A DNA stretch of 43,374 nt, the filler included, from Jimgerdemannia flammicorona (taxonomy: Eukaryota), in the NCBI GenBank assembly GCA_003990765.1. It is 2 parts of 2 records of this genome, joined end to end, with 100 filler letters (N's around TTAATTAATTAA, not from the genome) between each part and the next. Parts side by side here need not be neighbours in the genome. Positions count along the whole stretch, not along the records: positions 1 to 21,644 come from RBNJ01001416.1; 1 more part is not named here. One strand, 5' to 3'. The notes under the pieces are model-generated. The model did not search any database, was not told the DNA's origin, and saw nothing but the letters and a program-made list of their open reading frames with translations. Shown one piece after another: positions 1 through 34,840 of the stretch (position 1 is its first letter; every line of letters begins with the position of its first letter). A program made the translations under genes and the position numbers.

Positions 1-3000
1 AGAGATTCAGCTCGGTCAAGTTCGTGTTCTGCTTCAGAGCCTCGGCTAGAGCGCATGCCCCCTCGTTGCCAATTCTATTATCTTTAAAATGAACAGGGAA
101 TGAGCGAACAAGCACAGACCGTGAGTTTCATTCCATCACGCAGCTGCACAATGCTTCACACAGTTCTGACATACAGAAGAGATTCAGCTCGGTCAAGTTC
201 GTGTTCTGCTTCAGAGCCTCGGCTAGAGCGCATGCCCCCTCGTTGCCAATTCTATTATCTTTAAAATGAACAGGGAATGAGCGAACAAGCACAGACCGTG
301 AGCTTCATTCCATCACGCAGCTGCACACAATGCTTCACATAGTTCTGACATACAGGAGAGATTCAGCACGGCCAAGCTCGTGTTCTGCTTCAGAGGCTCG
401 GCTAGTGCACGTGCCCCCTCGTCGCCAATGCTACTATCTTTAAAATGAATAGGGGATGAGCGAACACGCACAGACCGTGAGCTTCATTCCATCACGCAGC
501 TGCACACAATGCTTCACACAGTTCTGACATACAGGAGAGATTCAGTTCGGTCAAGGTCGTGTTCTGCTTCAGAGACCCGGCTAGGATGCGTGCCCCATTG
601 TGGTCAATGATATTATCTTTAAATGAACAGGAGATGAGCGAAGACGCACAGATCATGAAACCCATTCCATCATGCAGCTGAACACCATGCTTCACACAGT
701 TCTGACATACTGGAGAGATTCAGCCCGGTCGAGGTCATGCTCTGCTTCAGAAACTCGGCTAGGGCGCGTACCGGTGAGCGAACATGCACAGATTGTGAGC
801 TTCATTTCGTCATGCGGCTGAACACAATGCTTCATACAGTTCTGACATACAGGAGAGATTCAGTTCGGTCAAGGTTACGTTCCGCACAAACTCGAATAGG
901 GCGTGTGCCACCTTGTCACCAATTTTATTTCCTTTGAAATGAATAGGGAGTGAGCGAACACGCATAGATCATGAACTTCATTCCATCACACAGCTGTACA
1001 CAATGCTTCACACAGTTTTGATATACCTTCGATATTCAGCACGGTTGAGGCCGTGTTCCGCTTCAGAGACTCGGCTAGGGCGCATGCCCCCTCGTAGACA
1101 ATTATATTATCTTTAAAATGAATAGGGGATGAGCGAACACGCACAGATCGCGAGCTTCATTCCATCATGCAGCTGCACACAATGCTTCACACAGTCCTGG
1201 TATACCGGAGAGATTCAGCTCGGTCAAGGTCATGTTCCTCACCAACTTGAATAGGGCGCGTGTCACCTTGTCACCAATTTTATTCCCTTTAAAATGAATA
1301 GGGGATGAGCGAGCACGCATAGGTCGTGAACTTCATTCCATCGCGCAGCTATACACAATACTTCACACAGTTCTGATATACCTTCGAGATTCAGCACGGT
1401 CAAGGCCGTGTTTTGCGTCAGAGACTCGGCTAGAGCGCATGCCCCCTCATAGCCAATTCTATTATCTTTAAAATGAATAGGGGATGAACGAACATGCACA
1501 GATTGTGAGCTTCATTCCATCATGCAGTTGCACACAATGCTTCACACAGTTCTGACATACTGGAGAGATTCAGCTCGGTCAAGGTCGTGTTCTGCTTCAG
1601 AGACTCGGCTATGGCGCGTGACCCCTCGTCGCCAATGTCATTCCCTTTAAAATGAATAAGTGATGAGTGAACACGCACAGATTGTGAGCTTCATTCCATC
1701 ATGCAGCTGCACACAATACTTTCATACTGTTCTGACATACCGGAGAGATTCAGCTCGGTCAAGGTCATGTTCTGCATCAATTTGAATAGGGCACGTGTCA
1801 CCTTGTCACCAATTTTATTCCCTTTAAAATAAATAGGGGATGAGCGAGCACGCATAGATCGTGAACTTCATTCCATCGCGCAGCTATACACAATACTTCA
1901 CACAGTTCTGATATACCTTCGAGATTCAGCACGGTCAAGGCCGTGTTTTGCGTCAGAGACTCGGCTAGGCCGCATGCCCCCTCGTAGCCAATTCTATTAT
2001 CTTTAAAATGAATAAGGGATGAACGAACATGCACAGATTGTGAGCTTCATTCCACCATGCAGTTGCACACAATGCTTCACACAGTTCTGACATACTGGAG
2101 AGATTCAGCTCGGTCAAGGTCGTGTTCTGCTTCAGAGACTCGGCTATGGCGCGTGCCCCCTCGTCGCCAATGGCATTCCCTTTAAAATGAACATGGGATG
2201 AGCAAACATACACAGACCGTGAGCTTCATTCCATCTTACAGCAGCACACAATGCTTTACACAGTTCTGACATGCTGCACACCTCCTTGCAGTCCTGACAT
2301 GCCGAAGAGATTCAGATTGGTGAAGCTTGTATTCTTCTTCAAAAACTTAGCTAGGGCACGTGCCCCATCGTCGCCAATGTAAATCACTTAAAAACGAAAA
2401 GGGTATAAGCAAATACACACTGATTATGTCAGGTAGTTGTATGCAATGCTTCACAAAGTTACGATGTATAGAGGATGAAGAAATAAGCAGAGATTATGAA
2501 CATGATTACATCACATGGCTGCAAATAACTGTTCATACAGTTCTGACATACTTTGGAGATTCAGCTCGGTCAAGACCGTGTTCCGCTTCAGAGACTCGGC
2601 GAGGGCGCGTGTCCCCTCGGCGCCAATTACATTCCCTTTAAAATTAATAGGGGATAGGCGAACACGCGCAGATTGTGAGCTTCATTCCATCACACACAAT
2701 GCTTCACACAATTCTGACATACTGAAGTGATACAGCTCGGTCAAGTTGGCTATGGCGCGTGCCACCTTATCACCAATTTTATTCCCTTTAAAATTAACAG
2801 GAATGAACGAACATCAACAGATTGTGAGCTTCATTCAAGCATGCAGTTGCACACAATGTTCACACAGCTCTGACGTACCGAAGAGCCTCAGCTCGGTCAA
2901 GGTCGTGTTCTGCATCAGAGAATCTTCTAGGGAACATGCCCCCTCATCGCCAATGCTATTGACTTTAAAATGAACAAGAGATAAGCGAACAAGTACTAAT

Positions 3001-4150
3001 ATAGCTGCACACAATACTTCATAGTTCTGACATACTGGAGAGATTCAGCTCGGTTAAGGTCGTGTTCTGCTTCAAAGACTCGGCCAGGGCACGTACCCCG
3101 TCGTCGCTAATGCTATTTCCTTTAAAATGAACAGGGGATGAGCGAACACGCACAGATCGTGAGCTTCATTTCACCACACAGCTGCACACTATGCTTCACA
3201 CAGTTTTGACATACCTTCGAGATTCAGCTCGGTCAAGATCGTGTTCTGCTTCAGAGACTCGGCTAGGGCGCGTGCCCCTTCGACGCCAATGCCATTCCCT
3301 TTGAAATGAATAGGATATGAGCGACACGCTCAGATCGTGAGCTTCATTCCATCATACTGCTGCACAAAATGCTTCACACATTTCCAACATACCTCCGAGA
3401 TCCAGCTCGGTCAAGGCCGTGTTCGGCTTTAGAGACATGGCTAGGGCGCGTGCCCCCTCGTCACCAATACTATTCCCTTTAAAATGAGTGAGCACGCACA
3501 TATTATGAGCTTCATTCCAACACACAGCTGCACACAATGCTTCACACAATTTGACATACTGAAGAGATTCAGCTCGGTCAAGGAAATATTCGTTGTCAGA
3601 GAATCAGCAAAAGCTTTGGCCCCCTCGACGCCAATGCTGTTTTCTGGAGTGAGGAAACACATGCAGATCATGAGTTTCGTTCTATATTACATCTCAGAAC
3701 AATGGTTCACGTTCTCATATACCTTGAAATTTAAGAGTGATCAAAGTTGTGTTCTGCTTCAGAAACTCCGCCAAGGCGCGGGTCAACAGAATGCCAATTC
3801 CGTTTTCTGAATATGATGAGAGGATGTGAGTACACCTGGATCACAACTTGCTTATATCCTACAACTATAAAACAATGATTCAGATAGTTCTGACTCACGG
3901 CTGAGATCAAGCTTGGTCACGTTTGTGTTCTGCTTCAGAAATTCGATTAGTGTGCGCGCTTCTCTATCACTTCTGTACTTTCCTGAAGATGGACAGAGAT
4001 GAGCAGATGTGCATATATGTGAACTTGATTTCTGTAAACAATAGTCTGCATTGTTTCGACATACCGGAGAGATTTAACTCATGTGAAATTTTTTCCTGCT
4101 TTAGAATCTCTGCTAGGATGCCTGCCTCCTCATCGCCTGTCCTGTTTTCT
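1..4150. repeat. Tandem array of about 179-bp exon+intron units (at least 24 copies)
   Basis: Recurring plus-strand words GAGATTCAGCTCGGTCAAGG, CTTTAAAATGAA, GAGCTTCATTCCATCA and CACAATGCTTCACACAGTTCTGACATAC at roughly 177-179 nt spacing. Units at 1-177 and 178-356 are nearly identical. Confidence 0.97.
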
Positions 4151-4265
4151 ATAAATAAACAGATATTTAGCATATACAAAAAGACTATAAGCTTAATTAT
4201 ATAACACAGTAGCAAATAATGATTCAACATACTGGCTGTATTCAGTTCTGTCCTGATGCTCTTCT
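1..4265 (-). CDS. Leucine-rich-repeat region (RI/NLRC3-like 28-aa LRR), one LRR per exon; runs off the window edge
   Basis: Exons read manually, all phase 1 at both ends: 4265-4233 (33 nt cap), 4148-4065, 3982-3899, 3806-3723, 3643-3560, 3476-3393, 3298-3215, 3119-3036, 2962-2879, 2785-2723 (63), 2635-2552, 2386-2303 (GC donor), 2179-2096, 2000-1917, 1821-1741 (81), 1644-1561, 1465-1382, 1286-1206 (81), 1110-1027, 931-851 (81), broken unit ending at 711, 616-533, 437-354, 258-175, 81-edge. Unless noted they are 84 nt. Consensus xNxIGDEGARALAESLKQNTTLTELNLS. Donors are mostly GTATGT/GTATAT and acceptors mostly TTTAAAG. No in-frame stops seen. Confidence 0.9.
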
Positions 4266-4556
4266 CTAAACACAGATTCAGGATTAATATGTATTAACCA
4301 ATATTATTTATAAGCAAAATACAGTATGTTACAAATGTGATGACTTCTGATTTCCACTCGCCAACGTTATCTTCGATGCTACCATAGCCTGATAAATGCG
4401 ACAAAAAGCAAGAACACAAACGCCTGCTTCATACACAATAATAATTATGTGTCCTGTGAAGCTATCTTACCTTGATTTGGTTGTCGCACGAGAGTGGCAA
4501 GCGTCAATCGCGAATGTTCTTTGGTAATTTGCTTGAGTTGTAAATGTGTGTAAAAT

Positions 4557-5814
4557 TTACTGCCGGTGTGGTATATACGCATCCACGAATCCGAAGACGT
4601 TGTCACTGTTTATAGATTCCAGCTCTTGCTGATGAGTGACCCGTCTTGCCTTGATGAATGACTGCATCTCGAGTGGAAACGGCATAGGTTTAATTGCAAG
4701 TCCCCCTAAGACTTGATATTCTATTTTTGATTGCAAGATGAAAGGAATGCCAACTAAACCAGCTGCACATTCTAACAATTGATGGTAGACTTTAAGAGCA
4801 CTAGGTCGCTGGTTGGGGTCGATGTGCCAACAGCTCCGGATGATATCATTGAACGTTTGTGGTGCGCCATGGATCAACTCCTCTCGAAGGCCATCGGGAT
4901 TACTGGAGACGGCCGCCGATGCATCGGCTTGTGGTGGAACGCCAACGATCAGCTGCCACAACAGAGTTCCCAAGCAGTAGACATCTGACTTCTGTGTATA
5001 TTGTTCGCCCTCGAAAATCTCTGGAGGGAAGTATGCTATCCGACCATAGACACCTCTCTCGGAATTTGCATCTTCTACAGCTTGACTAAGTCCGACGTCG
5101 ATCAGGAGTGCGATACGAGACTTGTGGAATACTATGTTGCCGGCATGGAGATCCTTATGGCTGAAGCCCATATCGTGGAGACTGGCCAAGCGGCTGGCAA
5201 GTTTTATGGCATATGTAAAAGTTGTATACCAATCACCATCTTGTTCACATGGCTGCTCTTCAAGAGTGCCGATATCAGCAAATTGCATGATCATCAGATA
5301 CTCTTCGGTTTCAGGGTGTTGTGACACAGCAACAATATCCATTGTAGGAGTATTAGTGGTATTATTTCCACAGTGATTCAAATAAACATTCAGAACCAAC
5401 TGTATTTGTGGGATAAAACCATAGCAAGGTTACTGATAATTGATGTAATGTGGAAAATATTGCATATATCACACCAACCGAACTTACCTCTTCGATCATT
5501 GACAATTTCAATTCTTTGGCAGCCACCTGGTAAAATTCTGACTTCAAAATAACATATGCCTGGTAAACTTTGGCAAACCCGCCTTTGGCAAGTACATTAA
5601 AAGAAAAGAGGCTACTGGGCGGAATCCAGACAAGGTATGGCTCCAGCAGCGGCACGGCCAATTTGTCGAGGCAAGCACGGAGTTTGTGGTCGTATCTGGA
5701 AAATTGGTTCTTCCAGGTCAAGATTTCAGTTTGGTGGGCACTGTCCAGGTATTCGAAGGGCTTGAGTCGGGCTAGTAGTCCCTGTATGCGCTGTTGGCGG
5801 ATTTGGGCGGACAT
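4557..5814 (-). CDS. Tyrosine-kinase-like (TKL) protein kinase domain, N-terminal part of a kinase-LRR gene. Exon 1 is 5814-5488, the intron is 5487-5400, and exon 2 starts at 5399.
   Basis: Kinase motifs in order: LAKGGFAKVY (Gly loop), VAAK, HKDLHAGN (catalytic loop), IDVGLS (DFG position), YFPPE, KSDVYCLGTLLWQL, CWHIDPNQRPSA. A GTAAGT...TACAG phase-0 intron joins ORF 5362-5814 to ORF 4557-5399 in frame. The frame stops at TAA 4559-4557. Confidence 0.93.
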
Positions 5815-5881
5815 GGTTTTGTAATGGTTCGTTGGGTCGTCGGGTCGTCGGGATAGGGGCGTTGGGGCTGTGTCATATTAC

Positions 5882-6181
5882 ATATAGTTATGAATGCAAT
5901 TCAAACTTCAGCAAAGTGGCTGAGAGCCGCTTAACATTATGCGGAACAATCATGCAATTTCCCCTTGGTGGACTTAGTTTAGCTCATTTCATGCAGTTTC
6001 TTGTCCCTTTCTATGCCAAAGATAACTTAGCTAGTGGTGTTTTAAAAATATGCCAACCATTAATGCAAGTTAGTAACAATGTAATCAGTCCAGCAACTGA
6101 GTATTTGTCACATCTCAGCTAGTCAGGCGTATACTATGCCAAGTTGCAATTAGTCGCTAGTATTTACAATCAGTTCGCATA
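5882..6181 (+). repeat. Ngaro repeat A1 (copy of A2)
   Basis: ATATAGTTATGAATGCAATTCAAACTTCAGC...TTTACAATCAGTT recurs at offset +4477. Confidence 0.95.
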
Positions 6182-6192
6182 CCACATTCACA

Positions 6193-7390
6193 ATGCCCCC
6201 AATTCGCACTTGGTCTCATGGTCCTTTGGAACCAGCTATAGCCCCAAGACCGGTTGCCCCCCTAGCCCCCTTACATGAACCTCACCCCTCCCCCATTCCC
6301 AATCTATCTGGCCTACATGCTTGTCACAAAGAACAGCTAGTCGCACTGTGTTGTGAACATCATCTGCCAGTCAAAGGTCAAAAAGCCACACTAGTTATGC
6401 ATCTCAACTCACACCATCCAAGTCCTGACTCTCCACCTTAGCTGATTATTGGAGAGCAAGCTGAAGATGCCCTTATTGAATGCTTAATCCCTACTTTAGT
6501 TGAGCACCTTGCAACACATCCATCCATCATACTGATGGGCCCCAACTTAATTACTCTGCCAGTATCAGGGCTACCAGTGGGCTTGTCACAGGCAATTCCT
6601 CTACTGGCCACTACTCCTCCCTCAGCCATGGCCCCCTTTATGCCGCCACCTCCTATGACAAGGTTGATATCACAATTGCTGCCAAATCTGCAAAGTGGTG
6701 AGTCTTCCTCGTCTCTCATTTCGGATGCCATGCTTCGACAGAATTGGGTACTGCCCAACTTGCTGGCATCACTAGATGTGGGCGACTATCAGATTCTATC
6801 CGAATGGACTGGCAGCGCTCTTATTTCATGATCAAGCAGCCACAAAAAAGCAGATATACACATACCCAACCATGAGCTAGATCTACCACTGTGGCTCGAA
6901 GCCATCTTTAACATCTGAGGTGCTCTACTGGCTCTGGGTACCATCTGATCGACCTCGCATGCATCCCATGCTCCTCAACTTCTTGCCCATGCAATCTTTA
7001 TCATTAAAGCAATAAATGATCATTATGACTGGGTGGCACTTCAATGCTTCGACCATCAAGTTCATACACTCAAGGCCTCCTTCCCTGACTTGGACATTGG
7101 CAATCCAGACATAGTTTACTGTACATTCGAGACAATCATTGGCCAACCTTCCTCAGCACCCTTAGCATATCAACATTGCTCTACGTTCTCCTATGCTGGA
7201 TCTCATGTGGTGGGAAGTTCATCAACTGCCCACCTGGCTGGTGGCCCAAAACCAGTCTTGTCCACCAATCTCTTGTGCTTTTGATGTGGGGTGCGGAGAC
7301 ATGCTGTCAGCTCCTATATCCAAACCCCACTCCAGCATCCTACTTTCCCATCTAAGCCAGACAATCCTATTTACCCAGATGGTGCAGTAA
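6193..7390 (+). pseudogene. Ngaro gag-like ORF1 with N-terminal SAP-like motif, interrupted by stops and frameshifts
   Basis: ATG just after A1. LHACHKEQLVALCCEHHLPVKGQKATLVMHL fits the SAP consensus. Pro-rich linker. Occupies the ORF1 position; the 3' boundary is approximate. Confidence 0.65.
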
Positions 7391-7411
7391 GCTTGATCTG
7401 TCATAACTTTA

Positions 7412-9100
7412 ATGGCTCTGGTTGCTCCTATTGAAACTGTGGTCAAGCACATGTATGCCTCTTCTGCTATGGATCTCACACAACCCTGGCTTGCTCTGCT
7501 CACTGCGGCTAATCTCTCAATTCCCCTCACTTCTAGTCATCCAACCACTCTGTACCATATTAAGAAGTGGAAAAGGGTACTGCATTCATATCCAAACCAA
7601 TCACTCATTCAGTACCACCTAACAGGTCTCTACCATGGTTATCAGTATGGAAATCACTCTCACCCTGAGCTTCACATCGACCTCATATCTGACAACCTTA
7701 CCTCTACTTACCAGTACCAAGAAGTTCTCTCCACCAACATTCTCACTGAGCTAGCTGCGGGTCGCTATCTTGGCCCATTTTCGTCTCTCTCCTCCATACT
7801 ATCAGAATTCTGCCCCTTTCACAATGCACTCTTTGGTGCCATTCCTAAGAAGCACTCGTCCAAATTTCATACTATACAACATCTATTCTTTCTCTACAGG
7901 AGTTCAGTCAATGATGGAATCAATCCTGAGGAGTTCTCAATCCAGTACCAGTCCATTCAAGCCATCATTCTCCTTCTCCTCTCAGTCAGCTCTACTGTGC
8001 TCTTCTGGAAGACCAATGTAGCTGACGCCTTCTGCACCATCTCAGTATACTGCTCCGATTGGGCTATGCAGGGTATCTACTGGCTTGGTCTTTTCTTCCT
8101 TGACATATTCCTCCCCTTTAGTCTTCGCTCTGCTCCCTTTATCTTCACATCTCTCATGGACCTCTTTACCTGGATCTGTATTCAACTGTACGATCTTCCT
8201 AACTTGGGCCATTTCATTGATGACTTTATCTACATCACACCTCTGTCCAGTACATTCTCCTCCTATAATCAATTTCATGCTACCACATCTCGATTCGGCC
8301 TCCCACTCAAACCCTCCAAAGATATTCCTCCTACTCCAACTATAGAGTATGTTGGCTTCATTCTCGACGCTCCAACAATGATGATTAGTCTCCCAATGGA
8401 GAAACACATACACATTCTCACCTTACTAGTATCATGGCTTATATCAACTCAGTAGACTCGATTATACTGTCTATGTCTGCATTCACACCATGAAGCTCAA
8501 TCACTCTTGGGCCATCTTATGCACATTGTTCAAATACTTCTAGATAGGAAGGTGTTTTGTGACAGCATCATTCACTTCGCTTCCTCTTGGAAACTGCCCT
8601 ATGTGGGGCAGTGTTTTCCACCTCCTTGACTAGCCACCGACTTATAGTAGTGGTATGATATTTTACACTCATGGCTAGATCATCGCCTGCTCTGCCATTC
8701 TGAGTGGCTCAATTGTGGTCTGTTTACAGATGCATCTGGGACACTTGGTACTGGTGACCTGCTGGGCCAATGCTAGTGGAGTACTCGTTGGGCTCCCTCC
8801 TTCTTAGATCTGAATAGCTATGACATATTCTGGAAAGAAATGTTTGCCATTTGGGTCTCGTTGGTGCTCTGGGGCCCCTTGTTTCATTCTCAATGTATTA
8901 TTCTCTGGTGTGATAGCCAGCCCTATGTCAAATCATTGACCAGTGGTCAGGCATGCCATCATCCTCTTGTCAATGACTTACTTCATCGTATCATTCTCTT
9001 ACATCTCAAAATCAGATTCGAAATTCAAGCTTATTACATCCCTTCAGCATCTAACTCTACAGACCCCTTATCTCACCATATACTTCCTCCACATCTCCAG
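7412..9100 (+). pseudogene. Ngaro reverse transcriptase + RNase H (degenerate)
   Basis: RT motifs GRYLGPF, GAIPKK, SVNDGI, WKTNVADAF (catalytic D>N), LPFSLRSAPFIF, HFIDDF. RNase H motifs LFTDASG (~8720), WKEMFAI, CDSQ, YIPSASN. Premature stops after 8455. Confidence 0.92.
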
Positions 9101-10041
9101 GACCCATTGCCTATATTAATCACATCTCTCTTTGGCTTCGCCATCAATTCGACACCTGCCTCTACCAATGCACCCATACTCGAATGGGTAACTTCTAGTC
9201 AGGCACCAATTCTCTACACCGATTTCTCAACTCCTGCAATATCGTAGAGGCTGCTGCTTTCCCTCTTCAAGATGAATTACTCAGTTATTGGACTCTTTGG
9301 CTTGTCCAAGATGGCAAGCCCTACTCTACCATCAAGAACTACTTCTATGATCTCGCAGCCTATCAGGTCACTCACTGGCATGGTCCTCCACTCCAGCGCC
9401 TTTCTCTACCCCTCTTCAACACCATTATGAAGTCTATTCAGACTCACCCACCACCTTCCAGTTCACTTGACCAGCTTCCTATTACATACCAATACCTCTG
9501 GTCTATCCGTCTCTCTCTCCATATAGACACTCCTTTTGGTGCTACTATTTGGGCAGTGGTGTGCTCTGCTTTTTATGGCTTAATGCATGTTGGTGAATTT
9601 ACTACTCGAGATGGCTCCATATTTAATCTGAATTGGCAAATTTGTCATCGCCATCTTCATCGCCGACAGGATGACACCCTTTCTCGACCATTCTGGGCTC
9701 TATATCTTCCCCGAACAAAAACAGGCAGAGCAGGCGACATCTTTCTTGGCTTCTCTGGCACCTTTGATTGCCCATGCACTGCAATTGACAACATGGTCCA
9801 TATTCTCCCAGTGCAACCTCATGACCCTGCCTTCTGCCTTGGCCTGAGTCAACCACTTTCTCGATCTACATTCATTGAAGTGATTCGATCTCTGCTCACA
9901 GACACCTCTCTAGCTGTCAGTATTTATGGTCACTCCTTTCGAATTGGTGGTGCCATGCTTCTGGCAGCTGGGGGCTATCCTGATCATGTCATTCAACTCG
10001 CTGGTCGATGGAAATCCACTGTATTTCTCCACTACATTTGA
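9100..10041 (+). pseudogene. Ngaro tyrosine recombinase (degenerate)
   Basis: AFYGLMHVGEF (catalytic R>H), LPRTKT, GHSFRIGGA (HxxR), LAGRWKS...Y. The 5' boundary is approximate. Confidence 0.92.
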
Positions 10042-10203
10042 CACCTCGACCACATTCTCCCCAAAACCATGGCAACACTAGCAGGACTCCCTCTTCCTGA
10101 TCTTCAGTGGGCCATAGGTTTGGCTAGTAATAGCCAAATTTCACCCATAAGTAGTTTATGGCACCATTAAGAGCCTAAAACCACTTCCCAGACCCACAGT
10201 TTT

Positions 10204-10359
10204 GGCCCCCTTTGCTAATGCGAATGGCGGGCCTTGGAGGCATATGCTTCTATATAGCCAAACCTACCCTGCTTCATCCTCTATACATATTCTACATTTT
10301 ACGCTTCATAATCCCCCCTTTTCTACTTTGTTGAATTGGTCACTCGATAGACACTTTGA
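10204..10359 (+). repeat. Ngaro repeat B1
   Basis: GGCCCCCTTTGCTAATGCGAATGG...CTCGATAGACACTTTGA recurs at offset +497. Confidence 0.95.
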
Positions 10360-10658
10360 TATAGTTATGAATGCAATTCAAACTTCAGCAAAGTGGCTGA
10401 GAGCTGCTTAACATTATGTGGAACAATCATGCAATTTCCCCTTGGCAGACTTAGTTTAGCTCATTTCATGTAGTTTCTTGTCCCTTTCTACACCAAAGAT
10501 AACTTAGCTAGTGGTGTTTTAAAAATACGCCAACCATTAATACGAGTTAGTAACAATGTAATCGGTCCAGCGACTGAGTATTCGTCACATCTCAGCTAGT
10601 CAGGCATATACTACACCAAGTTGCAATTAGTTGCTAGTATTTACAATCAGTTTGCGTA
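10359..10658 (+). repeat. Ngaro repeat A2
   Basis: Direct copy of 5882-6181, abutting B1. Confidence 0.95.
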
Positions 10659-10700: not shown

Positions 10701-10856
10701 GGCCCCCTTTGCTAATGCGAATGGTGGGCCTTGGAGGCGTATGCTTCCATATAGCCAAACCTACCCCACTTCATCCCCTATACACATTCTACATTTTATG
10801 CTTCATAATCCCCCCTTTTCTACTTCGTTGAATTGGTCACTCGATAGACACTTTGA
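10701..10856 (+). repeat. Ngaro repeat B2 (right terminus)
   Basis: Direct copy of 10204-10359. Confidence 0.95.
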
Positions 10857-11299
10857 CATCACATGACAGGTCAATCGGAATTATGAATAGCTAAGGACCA
10901 GCCCTTACAAAAAGATTGGTCGAATCACATCTCAGAAGAGGCTCCTTACGACCTTATGACAAACAGCGCGCTCGGAGGATCTTCCTCCGGGATTTGCTTG
11001 ATGAGCCTTGGCTTTTTAGCTTTGCGCATTAACTATCTACGGTTAGCTGACTCAATCCATCCGTGCAACCAAACAGGTATCCTTGGAGGCTTGTATACCA
11101 CCTATTATTAATTCGAAAACTCCCAATGCCTAACTCTTTACTCAATTCACCTTCGTTTATTTCGCTTTTGATTTCGTAAGACCTATCGCACACCCCCGAA
11201 AATCCACCATATTCAACCACGGGCACGGAAGCAAAAAAGACGAATAAGAAACACAATATGCAATTTGCAACGCCCGACCGCTTCACTTCTTGAAGGTAC

Positions 11300-14799: not shown

Positions 14800-15880
14800 A
14801 GATAATTGATATATACTATCTATATCTATCTGTTGGTGCATATTGGTCTGATACATATATTGTAAGAGAGTAGTGTGGTATTTAGAGAGATAGCAAAATA
14901 TATTTGAGATAGAAGAAAGATGGACAAGAGTATTACTTTTGATAATTATATCAAAAGTAAGAGAATGATAAGAGTTTTAGTTTATATTTTCTATTTTTAA
15001 TCAATTGATCCTTATTAATATTTACTCTATCTCTTATACTCTCTCTCTTTCTCTTTTTTCTTATCTTTCAATATATATATTAAATTAGTCTCAATATCTC
15101 AATTAACTCTATTATATAATTAATAAGTATATATTAAAAATATTATTATTCTTATTAATAAGAGAATATATAAAATATATTATTATTTTTAATATTACAG
15201 TACTTTATATATATATAGATTTTAATTATATTTTCAATTTTCTAACTAATATTATATTTTCTTACTCTCTAAAATAATAATATCTTTACATTATATATAA
15301 TATTCAACTAGATCTTTAAGAATATAAATTATGAAAAATATTATTATAAAATATTAATAAAAATAAAATTAAAAGATCATTTTAAATATATATATTTTTA
15401 ATAAGTTTAAAATTATTTTAATAAGATCTATTATTAAAATTTAATATATTTAAAGATTTATATATTTAAAATAATTAAATATAGCTAAATAAAATAAAAA
15501 TTTATATATTTATTAATAAATAAATAAATTATTAAATTTATAATAGTTTCAAATATATTTTATAATAATAATATATTTATAATTATTTCTCCTTTCTCTA
15601 ATTTATCTTTAAAATAAAAAATATATAATAATTATTAAATTAAATTAAATAATGGCTTTATTTAATTAAGTTTATTAAAAATACTAATTTAGAATATTAT
15701 TAATTCTAATCTTGGTTAGTTTATATATACTAAGTATTTAATAAAATATATCTCTCTTTTAAAGTTAATATTTAAAAAGTAGGTTTATTCTTATTATTAA
15801 TCTTTTTTTTATTTTATTTTATATTTTATTTCTCAAACTTGTCCATATTTTAATAGTAAAGAGAAAGTGAAATAGCCAAT
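14800..15880. other. Extremely AT-rich tract, probably a hypermutated transposon relic
   Basis: Almost no C/G, TpA-rich, no ORFs. Same texture as the recognisable Copia relic at 34.5-36.5 kb. Family not identifiable. Confidence 0.55.
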
Positions 15881-16823
15881 TATATTCAGCCGATTTCCAA
15901 CATGTTCGTCAAGTGACAACTGTCTACTAGGTTAGGTTTATTAAATGTGGTCTCATCGATTATCATCGATTATCCTCAAATACACGCCATCTACGCTCGT
16001 ATAAAAGATTCGCATAAATCATAATTGCAACAAACCGTGGGGCAGTCTGGAGAATTCACAGCGGTTCGAGGGTAAGCAAGCCGACCGGTCAGTTCAACAA
16101 TGTGGTCTTTACTCTTGGGAAAAGCCATTCAACAAAATGCAGGATAATACTGTAGCAGCTCCACACATTTTGACATGACACTGTGCAATGGATAAACGCT
16201 GTGCCATCGGGAGTATGCTGTTAACATCGAGTAAACTGTGTAACTGTGTTGGGCAGGATATTTGTGTATTACAAAATATCAACGTTTGAAGCGATGCGCG
16301 ACTTATAATTATGATATCCAAACATTCGTCGAATAATTTCCCCATACTGATCTGCTGTCGATCAGCTGTCAAAACAAAACCATACGGTGTGGGACAAAGG
16401 AATTTTGCTAACATTTTTTCTTGTTCTGGAGTCGTGACTAGATGTGCGGCACTGTAAACCTTCAGGTGGCGTTGCCGGAAAAGCATGTGATGTTCACACT
16501 CCAAAACGTATTTGTTTGTTTTATGCCTCTAGGCCCTTCCGTCCACGTTACCGTGGGATATGAAAGAAGCTTCGGGTCCGATCAAGACAAAACCTGTTGT
16601 AAGTGTTTCTAGACGTTTGTGTCAATAATAAATAAACTACCGAGAGAAGCAGTTCGACGCCAGCGCTTTCTATATCGACAATACTGGTGCTCTCTATGTT
16701 CTCTCGGTCTCTCGTGCTTGGACCCTGCCGCCTCCGTCTCTCTCGCGTCAGGAACTACCATGGCTTGACAAAAATATAATTTCCACGTTGTCAGAATAGG
16801 ACACCCGCAAAAAGGTGGTGGCG

Positions 16824-17374: not shown

Positions 17375-18800
17375 ATGGCGGACCCAACCTACAACCCCGG
17401 CGATATTTCCTGGGTCTTTGCCTCAACTGCGCTTGTATGGCTTATGATTCCTGGTATTGGTTACTTCTACTCTGGTTTGTCCCGGAGTAAGAACGCCCTG
17501 TCGCTCATCACACTTAGTGTTATATCCGTCGCCATTGTATCCGTTCAGGTAACGTTTGTTCCTTTTTCTCACCTCGTTTGGCTTCGCAAAGTCTCGCTAC
17601 GTAATTATTTTATATGTGCTAATCGATTGTGGTTTTCGAAATACCCTTAATTCGTGTGTGCAGTGGCTCATTTGGGGTTACAGTTTAACGTTCTCCGAGA
17701 CGTCGTCCAGCCCCTTCATTGGTGACTTAAGCAATGCCTTCTTCCGCGGAGTCAATAGTTCGCCTTCCATGGGCAACACCAAAATCCCTAAAATCGTCTT
17801 CGCCATCTTCCAATCCATGTTCGCCTCTCTCACCCCCGCCCTCGCCATTGGCTCGGCTGCCGAGCGCGCTCGCATTCTCCCCATGACAATCTTCCTCTTC
17901 GTCTGGCCAACCATCGTCTACGATCCGATCGCCTACTGGTCGTGGAATTCCAACGGTTGGTCAAAAAGGCTGGGCGGTCTCGACTTCGCGGGCGGCACTC
18001 CCGTCCACATCAGCTCCGGTGCTGCTTCTCTCGCATACGCTCTTATCCTCGGCCAACGTAGGCCTGACGAAAACGATGAGTTCAAGCCCCACAACATGGC
18101 CCACGTCGCCCTCGGTACCGCCTTCCTGTGGTTCGGCTGGTTCGGCTTCAACGGCGGCTCCGCCGAAGCCGGCAACATCAGGGCTGCCATGGCCTGCTTC
18201 GTTACCAACCTTTCTGCATCTGTCGGCGGACTCACATGGATGCTCATGGACTACCGCCTCGACCACAAGTTCTCCGTCGTCGGTTTCTGCAGCGGCGCCG
18301 TTGTCGGCCTCGTCACCATCACCCCCGCCTCCGGTTATGTCGGGCCCGCATCGGCCGTCGTCTTTGGTGTCGCTGGCGGTATTGTCTGCAACTTCGCCTG
18401 CAAGCTGAAGTTGGCGTTCAACTACGATGACGCTCTTGACGTTTTTGCAGTTCATGGTGTTGGTGGCCTCATTGGCGTCCTTCTCACTGGTGTCTTCGCC
18501 GATTCTAACATTGTCGCGCTCGACGGCTCCGTCATTGCCGGTGGGTGGCTCAACGGGCACTTCATTCAGATCGTCTACCAGCTTGCCGATGGTTGTGCTG
18601 GAATGTTGTACTCCTTTGGTGTCACCTACATTCTCCTGTTTCTCATGGACAAAATTCCTGGTCTTTCATTGCGTGTTACTAAAGAAAGGGAGACCATAGG
18701 TATCGACGCCTCTGAAATTGGCGAGTTGGCGTACTACCACGTTGAAAAGCTTCAAGTCGTCGATCTCAGGGTAATTAGATTAACACACACATCTCTGTGA
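17375..18800 (+). CDS. amt: Ammonium transporter (Amt/Mep family), join(17375..17548,17664..18800), about 436 aa
   Basis: [78 protein letters not shown] (both pore histidines present). Phase-0 intron GTAACG...TGCAG at 17549-17663. The C-terminus might instead be spliced at GTAATT 18771. Confidence 0.96.
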
Positions 18801-21644: not shown

Positions 21645-21744
21645 NNNNNNNNNNNNNNNNNNNNNNNNNNNNNNNNNNNNNNNNNNNNTTAATTAATTAA
21701 NNNNNNNNNNNNNNNNNNNNNNNNNNNNNNNNNNNNNNNNNNNN
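21645..21744. other. Artificial assembly spacer: N44 + TTAATTAATTAA + N44
   Basis: Exactly 100 nt and symmetric. The central 12-mer gives stop codons in all six frames, a typical contig-joining linker. Confidence 0.95.
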
Positions 21745-21745
21745 G

Positions 21746-22689
21746 GAGTGCAAATCTTGCTACAATTGCCATTTTTGCCATCAAGTTTGCCCAAACACCA
21801 CCTGGAAGCATTGCCAAATCAATTTCCCAGATGCCCCAAACCTCACAGAGAAAAGGCCTTACAAATTGGACATTAGGCATGCTTTCGCTGTGGCCAACAA
21901 ATGCATTAAGAAAGTACATGATGACCAACTGAGGCAAGAAGTCATAAGAGTGATAGAAAACCATGCGAAAATTATAGAATATTCATCATACCACACCGGC
22001 TTCAAGGTGAATGCCAAAGCATGGAACAAGCGAGGTTGTCCAGATGGAATTGTCATCATGGATGAACACGAAAAACTGCTGGCCATATTTGAACAAGTAC
22101 CAGTAAAGAATGACAAAATGCTTTATATGTGACTGATGGATGGCAGACTTGTGCATTTTATTGAGGAGGGTGATGGTGGAGGAGTGGAGAGGTGGGAGAA
22201 GTCAGTACCGGTAGAGGAGTTGGTGGAGAGATCGGTGGAGAGGTCGGTGCAGGGGTGGTCGGTGTGGGGGAGGTTGGCGCAAGAGAGGTTGGCACGGGGG
22301 AGGTCAGCGTGGGGGAGGTCGGCATGGAGGAGGTCAGTGCAGAGGAGGTCGGCATGGGGGAGGTCGGTGTGGAGGAATATGGGGAGGTCGGCGTGGGGGA
22401 GGTTGGTGCAGAGGAACATAGAGAGATCAGTGCAGAGGAACATGGGGAGGTCGGCGCAGAGGAACATGGGGAGGTTGGCATGGAGGAACATGGGGAGGTC
22501 GGCGCGGAGGACGAAATGGAGGTTGGCACAGAGGAGGTCAGCCCAGAGGAGGATATGGAGGAGGAGGATATAGAGGAAAGCAGTTCGGAATATATGAAGG
22601 AAGATAGTTTGGAATATAAGAAAGAGGAGGATCAATTGGTTTATAGCAATGAAGAGGAGGATCAGTTGGTTTATAGTGATGAAGAGTAA
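21746..22689 (+). pseudogene. 3' part of an unknown gene with Cys cluster and acidic repeat tail, possibly transposon-borne
   Basis: The frame from 21746 reads ECKSCYNCHFCHQVCPNTTWKHC...DIRHAFAVANK... to TGA 22132. After a frameshift come EVG[VAM]xE repeats ending in EEEDQLVYS x2 and TAA at 22689. Confidence 0.45.
22200..22560 (+). repeat. G-rich coding minisatellite with 15-bp and 24-bp units
   Basis: Units such as GGGGAGGTCGGCGTG and GAGGAACATGGGGAGGTCGGCGCA. Confidence 0.85.
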
Positions 22690-22937: not shown

Positions 22938-23180
22938 GGTTGGGTTAAAGACAGGTTATGTATAATTCCAGGTCAGGTTAAAGACAGGTAACATACGTTT
23001 CCAGGTCGGGTTAAAGATGGGTGACATATAATTCTGAGTCAGGTTAAAGATGGGTGACATATTATTCTGGGTCAGGTTAAAGATGGGTGATGTATTATTC
23101 CGGATTGGGTTAAAGATGGGTGACGTATAATTCCGGGTCAGGTTAAAGACAGGTGACGTATAATTCCAGGTTGGGTTAAA
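22938..23180 (+). repeat. 33-bp tandem repeat, 7 full copies plus a partial one
   Basis: Consensus GGTCAGGTTAAAGAYRGGTGACRTATAATTCCR, with units starting at 22938, 22971, 23004, 23037, 23070, 23103, 23136 and 23169. Confidence 0.92.
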
Positions 23181-23212
23181 TATGTACATGGGTTGGCTCA
23201 GGTTGTGATGTA

Positions 23213-26200
23213 CTAAGTGCAGGCCAATTCAGTGTGCTCCATCAGCCACTCTCCACCAAAAGCCCTTGAACTGCAGCCTCTGAATGCCATTCAGCCCCAC
23301 CAAGGAGAGCAGATCTCCAGAGGACCCTCAAGGGGATGTTCACATCTCCCATACCTTCTGCAGTAGAGGCACCCAACCTCCACCCTGCAATTCCACAGCT
23401 CTCTTCAACCACCAGGCTCGCAAGCAGTGTAGCCTCTTAGGGAAATCCACCAGGCCAAGACCTCCCCTGACTACCGGCCTCGCAAGAGTATCCCAACTAA
23501 CCTGGGACCTCCTCCCTGCCCAAATCCAATCCCTAGCCACCTTCAACAGCTTCTTCACCACCCATGCTGGAAAGTCGAGGTGATATGCTACATACTACAG
23601 CTTCAGGAACCAATATATATTCAGGATGGACACCTGCCCCACTAGAGAGATATAGCGGCCTCCCCAACCTCAAAGGACCTCCCCCCAACTATTCACCTTG
23701 CACTCCCACCATACTCGTGACAAGACAGACCCATATACAGAGAGGAAGATACTCAGATACCACACCATCTCACCAGTAGGGACAATTGTTCCAATGATGT
23801 CCCCATCCACTAGCCCATTCCCTAGCACCATCATCTCATACTTATGCCAGTTGAGCTTCACCCCCGAGTGAGCCTCATACCATTCCACAGTCTCTTGAAG
23901 TGCCTCAACATCTGCCACAGTCCCAAGTCCAACCACCATATCATCAGCAAAGGCCCCCACCTTCCACACTATACTATATATAGAGAGCTCTGCTACCTTC
24001 TGGCGAATCCTATCCATCAACGGCTCCAGTGAAAGGGCATAGAGAATAGGGGACAGAGGGTCCCCCTGAAGAACTCCTCTTCCCAAGGGAAACACCCTCT
24101 CATGGTCACTATTATATATCAGAGCTGCCCAACTACTTTCCAGCAGACTCAACATAGAGTCCTGAAAACTTGAGGGAATGCCAATTCGGTCCAATACCTT
24201 GCCCAGTCACACCCACCATATATGGTCATAGGCTTTCTCCTGGTCCAAAAAGACCAACCTTCCATCCAGTCCACAGGTCCGGGCCCCTTCAATGACACCA
24301 TGAACCCATACAGTCCTATCTTGTATTAGCCTGCCCACAACAAAGCCCCACTGCTCCTCCCCCAGTACCTGTTGGGCAACTTTCTGCAGCCTTGCAACCA
24401 CCACCTTAGTCACCAACTTCCTGTCCATATCCAGAAGCATGATCAGCCTCCAGTTCTTCCAGTCTTCTCTCCTTCCCTTATCTTTGTACAATAAGGTCAC
24501 CAGCCCCAGATCCTGCTCTCCAACCCACTCACCGCTCTGAAGGACATGGTCACAGAGAGCAGCCATCTCCCCCAGAACTCCGGAGATGTTTACCATCTTC
24601 TTCCAGAAGTCCCATAGCAATCCATCCTCCCCTGGCACCATCTCAAGTTTAGTTGCTACCAGGATGCTCTAGATCTCCTCTCCCTACACCAGTAAAATCA
24701 AGTCACCCAGGCCAGCTACCTGCAGTGGCCCCCACTCGTCAAGCGTATTCACAATCACTGCCTCATTCATGCTCCCTGCTTCCTCACTCCACAAGCCCTG
24801 CCATCGCTCCTTCAAGACCCCCAAGATTTGTTGCATGCCGTGTACCATGGTCCCATCAGTACTCAGGACCCCATCCCACTAATGATATACTCTCCTAGCT
24901 TTGAGAAGTTGCAATAAGTATCTAGTAGGCCACTCACCCTCCTCAAGCCCCTGCCACCATAGCCTAGCAGCCATGCTCTGCATATGAGTCTCCTCCTCTT
25001 CTCTCAGCACCTGTTGTAGTTCCACTATCTCCAATTTCGCCCTCTCTATCCGCCAATCCTCCACCTCTACAACAGTGAGCAAATTTGCCCAATCTATTTA
25101 TAGTCTCCTCAGCCTGCTGGAAGCACACCTTGTACGCCTCCTCTTCTGCCTCTCAGCCTCTCTACCAGCTTCTCTCCAATAAACCCTTGCAGCCTCTTTC
25201 AACCTCATCCAACAGACAGCCACAGGCAACCCCTCATGCTTCCAGATATAAACTTTTGCCTGAATGTCCTCCACCCACAATTCCCACAACCCCTTCTCAG
25301 CCAGTAGGGAGGAGTTAAGGTGCCAATGTCCAGGTCCATCTCCACTCCCCCCAAACTACCCCTGCCCCATCAGTCCCCAGTGATCAGACCATGGGCACTA
25401 CTCCACTTCCAATGCCTTCCAAACATCCAAACCCCAGCACTCCACCATCAGAATCCAGTCAATTCTTGTGCCCAAGCCATTCATCCAATGTATGTAGACC
25501 CTGGTGTCACCCCACCTTGTTCTGCCCATATCTCTTAAGGAGCTCAACGTCTCTACCTCCTCTCATGTATCCAGACCTCCACTCCTACCCCTGGCACTCC
25601 TCTCTCCATTAGTTCTGTCCAAATGCTGATCCCGAACCATATTAAAGTCCCTACTAAGAACATCAACCCCTTCCTCCAAGAGAACGCCCTCCTCCAGCAG
25701 CCCCTGAATCCATGCAGTTCTCTCACCCCTAGCCACAGGGCAGTAGCAAGAGCCCACCTTCACTAATTCCCACCCTGGCCGATGCCAATCTCCCCAGACC
25801 AAGCGATCGCCCCAGCTCCTGATTCCCCCCAAGTCTCCTCTACCCTTCCTCACCAGAATCGCTACCTTTCCAAACCAAGCAGCAGCCCCTCCCCATTCCC
25901 TAGCCCACTCTATCCTATCATCCTCATTCTCACACCAAACATCTTGTAATAAAAAGAGATCAGCCTCCAATCTCTTGAGCTAAGTAAAAATGTTCCTATG
26001 CTGCCCAGAGCCCCTTAGCCCATTCACATTCAAGGAAAAAATGTTAGTTGTACTGTTCATAAAGAATAATGATATATCAGAGTCCCATCCTCTACAAGTC
26101 TGCATTCCGCTCCTCCTGCACCAAGTCCAAGTCATGTTCAGCAGCTAGTTCCCTCTCCCTAGCTTCCCATGCCTTCAACTCTCTCAGAAGTTCTACCATT

Positions 26201-28188
26201 ACCCCATCTTCACGCTCCTCAAAGTTCTCGCAATACTCCAGACAGGCCTCCTGCCAGAGCTGCAGACCACGATGCTCTGCCCAACAGTAGTCTGCCTGCT
26301 TACTAGCGACCACCCCCAGCTCTGCCTTCCTCACCTCATCAACCTCATATCCCTCCTCCTCCAGTAAAATTGCCAGATCTCCACCTTCAGTGCCTCCACT
26401 ATTCCATCACCATGCAGAATCCTTGCCCAATGCTCCTCAGGCATTGTCTACAGGTTCACCTCCCCCAAAGCCTCTGCTGCAAAATTATCCATCACCTTGC
26501 GTATCCACAACAGGTTCCCCACCTCCTTCCCTCCCAGAGTCCCCAGTCACCCTGCATCCAACATCGTGGTGTCAGCTCCTATACTAGCAGCCTCATCCCA
26601 CTCCTCCTCAGGGACATCCACCAGCTCATCCTTGCCAACGGCAACCACCTGACCCTCTTGTGCCATATCAGAGATCCCAAAGCACACCTGCTGGGCCCCC
26701 TGCATCCATGTATCCTCTATCATCTCTCTCTTCCCAATTGGACCCCTCCTGATAAGTAGGGGGGGAGTGGCATCCAACACTGGCTCTCACACTTCGAAAG
26801 TACCATCCACAAATGGGTTCTTTTCCAGCCCCTTCCCAGCCTCTGCCTCCTTCGCCTCCACCTCCTCTCCTCTTTTACTAGCTCAGACACTGGCCTTAAT
26901 GCCTCCAGACTCCTCAGCTTCACCCAACTTCTTCTTCGCCCCACCTGTCATACTTGCCAACAGCTCCCTCTGCCTCTTGTGCCCCTGGGTTCACTCTCAC
27001 TGCTTCTTATCCATACAGATACACTTCCCGCCCACAACCTCCAAGTGCATCAACTCCTCATACAGTTTCCAAGCCTTTGCCCTCCTCTCCACAGCCCCAC
27101 TCAACTCCTCCAGCACCTCCAACAAGTCCTCCTCCTCTTCTTCACTCTCTTTCACTCTCGACACCTTGCAGATAATAGCCCTCCACATCAGCACCAAGGG
27201 CCAGTCACTTGCCTTCCCTGTGGCCTCCTTCCCCACTAACTGAATCCTGACATCAACATCATCTGTCCTGAAAGCCATCCCCTCCCACAGCTGAAAGCCA
27301 ATGTCCACCACATCACCATACTCTACCATCACCTCTTCCATCCTCCTCCTAGTCTCCTCCCTAGTCATCGTGGGCACCCCCCATACCAGAAGCTGCACCA
27401 CCCTGGGGTCCCACCTTAAGCACCTCACCATGGGGACCACTATCTCCCCAACCACCACTCCTGCCTTCATGGCCTCATCCAGTAGGCCTGCCTCCTCAAA
27501 GCCTACCTCAACCCCCTCCAGGCCCTTCAAGAACTTCACCAAGGCCGCACCAGCCACCTGCCTCGAAATAAGCCCCAGGACTATCCTTGCCATCACCACC
27601 AAGCCCCTGAAGTACAGATAGCTGCAAACTCCGAGATCGACTTCTTGAGTAATGGGGCCACTGCCAGTCCCATTACACCATCAGCAAGGTCCCCCTTCTG
27701 CATCAGGAACCCCTGCCCCCCCTGGCCATCAGCTGTCACATCTCTTTTTTTTTCCTGATCCACTGTCACACTCCCATCAGCAGTCCCACTACTACCCCCA
27801 GCCACTACTCCACTCCCTCCACCTCCCACCAGTGAAGGCCCAGCTCCCCCAGCATCTCCAACCTTCTGCTTCCCCTTTCCTCCTGCCTGTCCACTGCAGG
27901 CACCCCTCGGCCAGCCCCCAGCCCTAAGCACATCTGCAAAGCTCCCTCCCTACTGCCCTCCAGCCCCCCATCAGTGCTGCCTCTACCATCCGAGCTGCCC
28001 AGTCCACTCGATCCACTGAAAGACCCCATCCCCAGTCCATACCCTCTCCCAACATGCTGCCAGTCAAAGACCCCAGGTCCACCCAACCCAGGACATGTAT
28101 CAGCTCGCTTGCTGGTTGATATCTCCTTAGTATCTTTCTCTAATAAACAATTTGAAAGTATGTTGTAAAGTGTGTGTAATGTGAATTG
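23213..28188 (-). mobile_element. L1/Tx1-like non-LTR retrotransposon, copy 1 (5'-complete, 3'-truncated, degenerate)
   Basis: ORF1 RRM-like segment VVQLLVWGVP...YGDVVDIGF. ORF2 starts at 26060 (MNSTTNIFSLNVNGL) with APE endonuclease (FLLQD, DFNMV, SDH) and RT (NWRLIMLL, LDQEKAYD, QGDPLSPILY, AFADD, YLSI). Colinear with copy 2, but homology ends near 23213. Confidence 0.94.
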
Positions 28189-34050: not shown

Positions 34051-34061
34051 TCTAAGTTCTC

Positions 34062-34364
34062 TGTTATACTGAATAATGCCAGTACTGGTATTTTGATGTA
34101 ATACTGGATAATGCCAGCACTGACATTCTGAGGTAATGCAAAATTATTCCAGCACCAGTATTCTGATGTGACACTGAATTATACCAGTATCCTGAACCTG
34201 TACAACTATCAGTACCAACCCTGGAACTTAGTAGTTTTAGTTATTGGAATTTATATTTAGCTTTATATCTTAGCAAGCATTGAATTATATTTTGTATAAA
34301 TATCTCTCTTATTTTCTCTGAAATAAAGTCAGTCTTCTCAGTATAATATACACAATCCCTTACA
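34062..34364 (+). repeat. Putative LTR with internal ~35-bp tandem repeats
   Basis: TGTTA...TTACA termini, AATAAA at 34322 and about four copies of ATAATGCCAGYACTG... at 34072-34190. No second copy in the window and no clear PPT upstream. Confidence 0.4.
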
Positions 34365-34529
34365 AGTAATCTAAGAGATAACAAGACAGTTAAAGATAAG
34401 AAGTTTGAGGACTATAAGACCTTAGGAAGGTACTTCAATAAGAACTTGCTTATAACAAACTTGAGTTAGTCTAAAAGATATATCTTGAAGAGAATCTGAT
34501 GTATTTGAAGGACTCAGCAACTACTACAT

Positions 34530-34804
34530 GATAATATATAAAATTAAATATAATAATAATAGTGATATAAAGCAGTACAAGATCTGATTTATAATAAAGG
34601 AGTATTTATAAGACTATAGTGTAGACTATGATAAAATCTTTTTCTTAGTATTCAAGCTTACTTTACTTAAAATACTTCTTGTAATTAGAGTCAAATATAA
34701 CTATAAAATCTACTAAATAGATATTAAGTTAGTCTTCTTGAATAGCAATATAAATATAGAGCTATATATCTATTAACTATAAGAATACAAACTATATGAT
34801 AATC

Positions 34805-34840
<36 letters not shown>

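Follow-up and report, generated by a model that had tools for sequence, protein, structure and literature searches.

We analysed a 43,374-nucleotide stretch of DNA from the fungus Jimgerdemannia flammicorona (GenBank assembly GCA_003990765.1), made of two parts joined by filler, which is referred to at its full length as the window. Positions 1 to 21,644 come from RBNJ01001416.1, and the beginning of the window carries, on the minus strand, a gene for a protein kinase followed by an array of leucine-rich repeats (LRRs). The start codon is at 5814, and the LRR exons lie downstream, from 4148 to 1. An earlier note on this DNA had proposed a kinase followed by at least 24 phase-1 exons of 84, 81 or 63 nt, each encoding one LRR; the exon table, the Pfam searches and tblastn bear this out. 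That note was silent on the minus-strand orientation and on a 4-base frameshift between the kinase and the LRRs. The features of the gene are listed in Table 1.

Table 1. Features of the kinase-LRR gene, by position in the window
Feature	Position	Strand	Remarks
Exon 1	5488..5814	-	327 nt; start codon, N-terminal region, glycine-rich loop, ATP-binding lysine
Intron 1	5400..5487	-	88 nt; position kept in relatives
Exon 2	4557..5399	-	kinase catalytic core, to about 4561; assembled frame stops at 4557-4559
Four extra bases	4572..4575		TA-dinucleotide run; frameshift site between kinase and LRR
Linker coding sequence, shifted frame	4471..4576	-	P0001 residues 380-412 match 4576-4478 (tblastn)
Linker with small candidate exons	4149..4470	-	candidates 4388-4333 and 4260-4233
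LRR array	1..4148	-	24 phase-1 exons and 23 homologous introns; continues past window start
63-nt LRR exon	2723..2785	-	in-frame 21-nt deletion variant
Exon-loss scar	2387..2551	-	two intron copies back to back, no exon between; one 165-nt intron
LRR exon before GC donor (2302) and 123-nt intron	2303..2386	-	exon table
Three-unit block, two copies	2179-1645 and 1644-1111	-	534/535 nt; 509/534 aligned bases identical
81-nt LRR exons	1821-1741, 1286-1206, 931-851	-	exon table
Damaged unit	711..772	-	about 38 nt gone across intron-exon border
Twin terminal units	258-175 and 81-1	-	exons identical, 81/81 bases

Layout of the kinase-LRR gene

The nearest named protein was P0001, a hypothetical protein of 769 amino acids (aa) from Endogone sp. 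FLAS-F59071. It has a PK_Tyr_Ser-Thr domain (1.9e-22) followed by LRR_6 (1.3e-33), and is collinear with the window gene (tblastn). Exon 1 matched residues 5-106 of P0001 at 5790-5494 with 50% identity (tblastn) and ends at a donor of the GTAAGT type at 5487. The same break, at P0001 residue 106, was found in two metagenome loci, L001 and L002. When the kinase, a putative TKL member that the earlier note had placed in this group, was compared with Pfam profiles, PK_Tyr_Ser-Thr (PF07714, E 1.5e-25) outscored Pkinase (PF00069, E 9.6e-22), and the kinase was 62% identical to that of P0001 over 273 residues. It has the glycine loop, the ATP-binding lysine and the catalytic motifs of a eukaryotic protein kinase in addition to the profile match, and the catalytic-loop (HxD...N), DxG and PPE residues were invariant across an alignment of five sequences (the window kinase and four relatives). 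Judged by these residues, the kinase appears catalytically competent.

We then compared the overall layout with those of known receptor classes. No transmembrane segment was found in the visible protein, the C terminus of which lies beyond the window; the highest 19-residue Kyte-Doolittle mean was 1.46, in agreement with what the earlier note had reported for the visible part. With its kinase at the N terminus and no hydrophobic segment in the visible part, the gene does not have the layout of the plant or algal LRR receptor kinases. Pfam gave no match to a NACHT or NB-ARC NTPase family in the window pieces or in P0001, so that neither has the module of the NLR/STAND proteins, nor was there any Roc or COR domain in the window pieces or P0001, as would be found in a ROCO/LRRK protein. 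The linker between the kinase and the LRRs is only about 100-130 residues.

In the array, Tandem Repeats Finder detected a 179-nt period at 1-2272 and 3003-3583, and 18 of the 24 exons are 84 nt long; three are 81 nt, one is 63 nt, one is damaged and one is cut at the window edge (81-1). All 24 are in phase 1, with lengths of 84, 81, 63 or 48 nt, and each encodes one LRR. The donors are GT in 22 of the 23 introns and GC in one (2302), the acceptors are AG throughout, and the introns range from 73 to 165 nt, with 12 of the 23 at 94-96 nt. Once spliced, the array reads through 648 codons without a stop, whereas all of the unspliced frames are full of stops. A random placement of the 155 consensus differences over the 14 core exons would be expected to create 4.5 stops, and the probability of finding none was 0.0096. 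Profile searches with nhmmer returned 24 exon and 25 intron matches, all on the minus strand, and no exon or intron copy in the rest of the window outside 1-4400.

The repeats are exactly 28 residues long in the 18 exons of 84 nt, and their consensus fits the LxxLxLxxNxL pattern that, with a helix-forming segment after it, defines the 28-29-residue repeats of the ribonuclease inhibitor (RI)-like class. When single exons were compared with Pfam, LRR_6 was the sole match in six of seven, and even the highest score (22.5 bits, E 1e-4) stayed under the cut-off of 23.4 bits; the translation of the array matched the LRR_6 region of P0001 (tblastn). As for the introns, four of them folded no better than their shuffles (z -0.63 to 0.87), and a search of Rfam with positions 1-6000 found no family, the only hit being a sub-threshold chance match.

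Since every exon has the same phase and a length divisible by three, the earlier note had argued that any skipping, unequal crossover or gene conversion would leave the protein in frame. The argument was supported: all 253 exon-skipping joins lacked a junction stop, whereas 24 of the 552 joins in any order create one. The array itself bears scars of gain and loss. Wherever the splice sites were kept, changes in exon length were always multiples of three, whereas the lengths of the introns vary freely.

Turnover of exon-intron units and variation between repeats

Several parts of the array record the gain and loss of units. In the duplicated three-unit block, the exon pairs 12/15, 13/16 and 14/17 are 98, 96 and 94% identical, and at the end of the visible array, where the last two exons are twins, the introns after exons 22 and 23 are 98% identical. 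Loss is recorded by the exon-loss scar, where the two intron copies were matched by nhmmer at 2551-2460 and 2463-2387. In the damaged unit, the exon match was confined to model positions 23-83, and the match to the upstream intron stopped at model position 79 (nhmmer). As a result of this loss, the native acceptor is gone, so that the unit can only be skipped or be spliced in as a cryptic exon of 48 nt (758-711), which is in frame. These results show that the array grew and shrank by the duplication and deletion of whole 179-nt exon-intron units, both singly and as three-unit blocks. The duplication of exon and intron as one unit, which the earlier note had supposed, is supported.

A long array of similar units may also be produced by an assembler that expands a shorter repeat. 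The identity of the last two exons, the 95% likeness of the 535-nt blocks and the two 44-N runs elsewhere in the window are in line with such an artefact. However, most of the units differ by 10-25% and have indels and scars of their own, unlike collapse or expansion artefacts, and near-identity is limited to the two terminal units. We therefore regard an assembly expansion as very unlikely.

The introns had been described as about as similar to one another as the exons. They are in fact more alike: identity in 19 core units was 82.6% for introns and 77.1% for exons, and over all units, it was 77.8% and 72.2%, respectively. Differences from the consensus were correspondingly more frequent in exons (155 of 1176) than in introns (131 of 1303; Fisher p = 0.017), with unit 21 as the extreme case (13 of 84 positions in the exon versus 1 of 95 in the intron; p = 3.5e-4). 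In distances pooled over 105 pairs of 84-nt exons, synonymous divergence (dS) was 0.205, compared with an intron distance of 0.192. Silent sites and introns thus share one neutral rate, which fits the joint duplication of exon and intron. The pooled nonsynonymous divergence (dN) was 0.223, giving a dN/dS ratio of 1.09 over all codons; the ratio was 2.2 at the four most variable codons, which were chosen post hoc, and 0.78 at the remaining codons. All these values come from a comparison of repeats with one another within one array, rather than from a formal test of selection.

The variation was unevenly spread along the repeat. Residues I4, G8, L16, N19, T20 and L25 were invariant, whereas positions 28, 1, 3, 6 and 21, equivalent to x7, x8, x10, x13 and the residue preceding the first leucine of the LRR motif, were hypervariable. 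Fourteen of the 84 exon columns lay above the 95th percentile of intron diversity, and four or five surface positions reached up to three times the neutral level. The results showed frozen structural residues in the LRR and an accumulation of variation where the beta-strand ends and in the loop after it. Such a pattern fits a diversification of the surface at the concave rim. The earlier note had called the gene a candidate diversifying non-self receptor and had named an excess of nonsynonymous change at exposed beta-strand positions as something that would support this. The overall dN/dS ratio and the variation at x7, x8, x10 and x13 fit diversification, and the gene may be a putative receptor of this kind.

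Linker, relatives and transcript-like contigs

Only two public runs, X1 and X2, contained a share of the stretch's words (0.05), and the parts that they leave uncovered are uninformative. X2 is recorded as a root metatranscriptome, and X1 was guessed to be RNA. These runs and the relatives of the gene were used to examine the junction between the kinase and the LRRs. Along the minus strand, the homology to P0001 switches from frame -2 to frame -3 between 4581 and 4576, which leaves no room for an intron (tblastn). A 42-nt intron joining the kinase exon to the linker was also tried and rejected, as it puts the downstream sequence in the wrong frame; the homology gives a frameshift instead. An X1 contig of 377 nt spans 4669-4474 with 2 mismatches (99% identical) and omits four bases at 4572, and the relative L001 reads P0001 residues 106-406 in a single frame. 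Without the four bases, the kinase frame continues through the linker and reaches the donor at 4470 in phase 1, as the array needs. With the near-identical contig and L001 both in frame, the window copy is a pseudogene allele of very recent origin or else the product of an assembly error. Another change of frame was noted in the relative L003, from frame 1 to frame 2 at 1035-1037 within the catalytic domain (tblastn), reflecting a broken copy or a read error.

Farther along the linker, the two small candidate exons add up to 84 nt and encode a degenerate LRR. Homology to the array introns extends to the intron that precedes the first LRR exon (4226-4158, E 0.0034 by nhmmer). We enumerated 58 stop-free exon chains between 4470 and 4149, none of which had the 96-97 nt estimated from the X1 contig. 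Position 4097, close to where the first LRR exon ends, is covered by another X1 contig of equal depth, and these matching depth values suggest that about 225 nt of linker introns were removed in the X1 molecule.

Contigs in both runs extended to other parts of the gene and to its paralogues. X2 contained a 171-nt kinase contig with 2 mismatches, as well as a paralogue contig with 31 letters between 3778 and 3902, which fits the exact removal of a 92-nt intron. In X1, joints removing the 83-nt intron 3559-3477 were found in contigs of relatives. From X1 came 359 contigs with a likeness of at least 85%: 12 of them reached 99% or above, 47 fell at 95-99%, 144 at 90-95% and 156 below 90%. No contig of X1 or X2 lay over this gene's own array. 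The contigs of the two runs point to a large expressed family, and splicing of this particular locus is not proven by them.

The window copy may be a recently dead member of this large kinase/LRR family, its irregularities and high dN/dS ratio being due to decay and relaxed constraint and not to the diversification of a receptor. In line with this are the four-base frameshift with the stop at 4557-4559, the truncated unit, the exon-loss scar, the GC donor, the ratio of 1.09 and the repeat-flanked element, which starts 68 nt before the ATG; among the many paralogue contigs of X1, only 12 of 359 reached 99% likeness. Decay is more difficult to reconcile with 24 LRR exons that remain open over 648 codons (given the probability of 0.0096 in the 14 core exons), with the invariant structural residues, or with length changes in multiples of three in exons with intact splice sites. 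The 99%-identical contig lacks the insertion altogether. From the open exons, the kept residues and the insertion-free contig, it follows that any inactivation would be very recent, or the frameshift is an assembly error. We think a dead copy rather unlikely.

Next, we searched for relatives with the same domain order. The array of P0001 is less than half the length of that in the window. Further kinases of Endogone had 35-43% identity, and the Atlas neighbours of the window kinase were Mucoromycota clusters, which makes an Endogonales-like fungus the most likely source. A metagenome scan with the kinase alignment gave four relatives (L001-L004) at 61-65%, on contigs of 1.1-1.8 kb with no array on them. 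A library search with P0001 returned 136,898 proteins at E <= 0.001, dominated by giant LRR proteins; there was no further kinase-LRR protein among the 150 matches listed, and one was kinase-only (P0263). Among proteins of solved structure, those closest to the LRR region of P0001 were the RI-like proteins LRRC34, RNH1 (ribonuclease inhibitor) and NLRPs, with DRC5 and RanGAP also found, and that of its kinase was ABL1 (1.6e-16). A structure match in the Atlas was to a NOD2 cluster, with a TM value of 0.52. LRR relatives in the databases often carry NACHT (e.g., P0009) or Roc-COR (e.g., P0013), and RNI-like proteins are present in Mucoromycota.

The LRRs could serve an ordinary regulatory or scaffolding function in a working gene, through autoinhibition or fixed partners and not as a surface for variable recognition, with the turnover of repeats as a neutral by-product. 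The RI-like superfamily is very large, as the number of library matches to P0001 illustrates, and many of its members are non-immune; LRRC34, DRC5 and RanGAP are among the solved relatives, and Mucoromycota have RNI-like proteins. A neutral by-product fits less well with exons that diverge more than introns, with variation concentrated at four or five surface positions at up to three times the neutral level, or with an array of more than twice the length of that of the Endogone relative. We consider this explanation a tentative one, with a minor share of the probability.

The rest of the window was also surveyed. A 4.8-kb element (5882-10658) has direct repeats of 300 nt at its two ends (5882-6181 and 10359-10658; 94% identical) and contains two open reading frames (ORFs), one at 7412-8455 without a Pfam match and one at 9427-10041 with a match to Phage_integrase below the cut-off (E 0.0039). 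Possible identities are a tyrosine-recombinase retroelement and a Crypton-like insertion. Direct repeats of 159 nt (10204-10362 and 10701-10859; 94% identical) straddle its right-hand 300-nt repeat. An uninterrupted ammonium transporter ORF of 414 aa lies at 17556-18800 on the plus strand (PF00909, E 8.6e-105). A non-LTR retrotransposon-like element is present in two inverted copies (23293-27694 and 38012-42416) with 71-73% identity and one short arm at 89%; RVT_1 was found at 23670-24194 (minus strand) and an endonuclease/exonuclease/phosphatase domain at 39622-40434 (plus strand), and the copies show strong, opposite GC skew. A 33-nt tandem repeat at 22943-23206 appeared as six overlapping 99-nt windows with a 33-nt step, and near it, an ORF at 22123-22635 (minus strand) gave a Pentapeptide match (E 8.6e-6) that is probably driven by the repeat. 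Very AT-rich tracts occur at 15001-16000 (GC 0.15) and 34001-37000 (GC 0.21-0.26), the GC content of the window being otherwise 0.38-0.57. The coordinates of the two 44-N runs (21645-21688 and 21701-21744) are those of the filler that joins the two parts of the stretch.

Comparison with known receptors and interpretation

Genes with one LRR per exon have been described in other lineages. In the brown alga Ectocarpus, each LRR of the ROCO and LRR-kinase genes has a 72-nt exon to itself, with exon shuffling and positive selection (PMC3341825, Zambounis et al. 2012), and alternative splicing of LRR exons was described as well (PMC11378527, Teng et al. 2024). The likeness to the window gene lies in LRRs each on its own symmetric exon of constant length, in tandem arrays and in inactivated exons; the Ectocarpus proteins are described there as cytosolic, as proposed immune receptors, some of them with a kinase, and as under positive selection at exposed positions. 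According to the same texts, however, the Ectocarpus exons are of 72 nt, encoding a 24-residue LRR, and in phase 2 (Teng 2024), whereas those of the window are of 84 nt, encoding a 28-residue RI-type LRR, and in phase 1. The LRRs of Ectocarpus lie N-terminal to Roc-COR or the kinase, whereas those of the window lie C-terminal to the kinase, without Roc-COR. The Ectocarpus LRR-kinases are presented there as free of shuffling, and the ROCO introns as containing reverse-strand LRR exons, none of which was found in the window by nhmmer. When the window gene is set against those of Ectocarpus, its introns are homologous throughout.

A second precedent is provided by the human NOD/NLRC genes, most of which have one 28-aa LRR per exon, with in-frame skipping allowed (PMC6642158, Hoss et al. 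2019); this agrees with the 84-nt LRR exons that the earlier note had given for animal NOD/NLRC genes. In the same account, the RI-type 28-residue LRR occupies one exon, and the exon borders always fall at one fixed point of the repeat, as they do here. The human NLRs have a central NACHT, whereas the window gene is without one. In fungal NLRs, the WD40, ANK and TPR repeats lie within exons, and introns are not involved. These repeats of high internal conservation (WD40, ANK, TPR) are reportedly arranged in tandem, recombine and vary at surface positions, as Dyrka et al. are said to have found in 2014. They are non-LRR and NOD-linked, whereas the window array is made of LRRs, with an exon identity of 77% and a few pairs at 94-100%. 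A fungal-immunity review states that the repeats of fungal NLRs are mostly WD40 or TPR, in line with the earlier note. Among protist proteins that combine LRR_6 with PK_Tyr_Ser-Thr or Pkinase (P0096 of Skeletonema marinoi, P0121, P0129, P0139 and P0145), the LRRs are N-terminal and the kinase is C-terminal in all five with both domains (six were scanned), the reverse of the order in the window gene and P0001. Our literature searches found no description of kinase-LRR arrays in Endogonales or Mucoromycota; the main text of a fine-root-endophyte genome paper (PMC12574304) has "kinase" in metabolic contexts only and does not mention LRR. Because of the precedents in brown algae and in human NOD/NLRC genes, the one-LRR-per-exon design is not new in kind. 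What is distinct here is the fungal host, the order of kinase and then LRR without NOD or Roc-COR, and the 84-nt phase-1 exons, as well as introns with homology along the whole array and with stronger conservation than the exons.

Taken together, we favor, as somewhat probable, a nuclear gene from a fungus like the Endogonales (Mucoromycotina), whose product would be a soluble protein made of an N-terminal kinase, a short linker and a C-terminal solenoid of at least 24 RI-type LRRs that presumably acts as a sensor. The LRR horseshoe would bind a ligand or hold the kinase in an autoinhibited state, and so control it. The order, effector and then sensor, would be as in NLRs, without the NOD module. 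Unequal crossover, and possibly exon skipping, would then alter the binding surface without breaking the frame. A putative function as a receptor is plausible.

A number of observations weigh against this interpretation. The assembled copy would yield a kinase-only product of about 389 aa because of the stop after the frameshift, it has one damaged unit and one GC donor, the insertion-like element flanked by repeats starts just upstream of the ATG, and the C-terminal end of the gene lies beyond the window. The removal of this gene's own linker introns rests on matching depths and not on a listed joint, and the intron-free LRR joints of X1 come from paralogues at 85-95% likeness, which could be intronless DNA copies. 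Protein searches found no second protein with the kinase-then-LRR order besides P0001, and with a single other protein of this order, any conservation of function would be conjectural. As for the variation, positions x7, x8, x10 and x13 vary in most LRR proteins anyway, a between-repeat dN/dS ratio near 1 is equally expected under relaxed constraint, and the four codons with the high ratio were picked after the data had been seen.

A broader proposal, which we put forward as speculative and doubtful in its full extent, is that Endogonales carry a lineage-specific, multicopy set of cytosolic kinase-LRR sensors without NOD. Their surface would be rebuilt by unequal crossover between homologous introns, perhaps with exon skipping, and they would be an LRR-based fungal counterpart of the brown-algal ROCO receptors and the LRRs of animal NLRC proteins, possibly directed at plant hosts or endobacteria.

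Candidates for LRR-based intracellular sensors are scarcely described in fungi, in which those characterized are of the WD40, ANK and TPR types. Here, in a plant-associated fungal lineage that diverged early, RI-type LRRs form an array built like those of NOD/NLRC and ROCO, and this array is wired directly to a kinase. The homologous introns of the array offer what few systems have, an internal neutral reference for selection on each repeat; relative to it, a few surface positions change at about three times the rate. Should the family vary among isolates, it would allow the diversification of fungal receptors by exon-intron cassettes to be studied in a tractable system; if it does not, it would neatly illustrate how repeats grow through the duplication of units.

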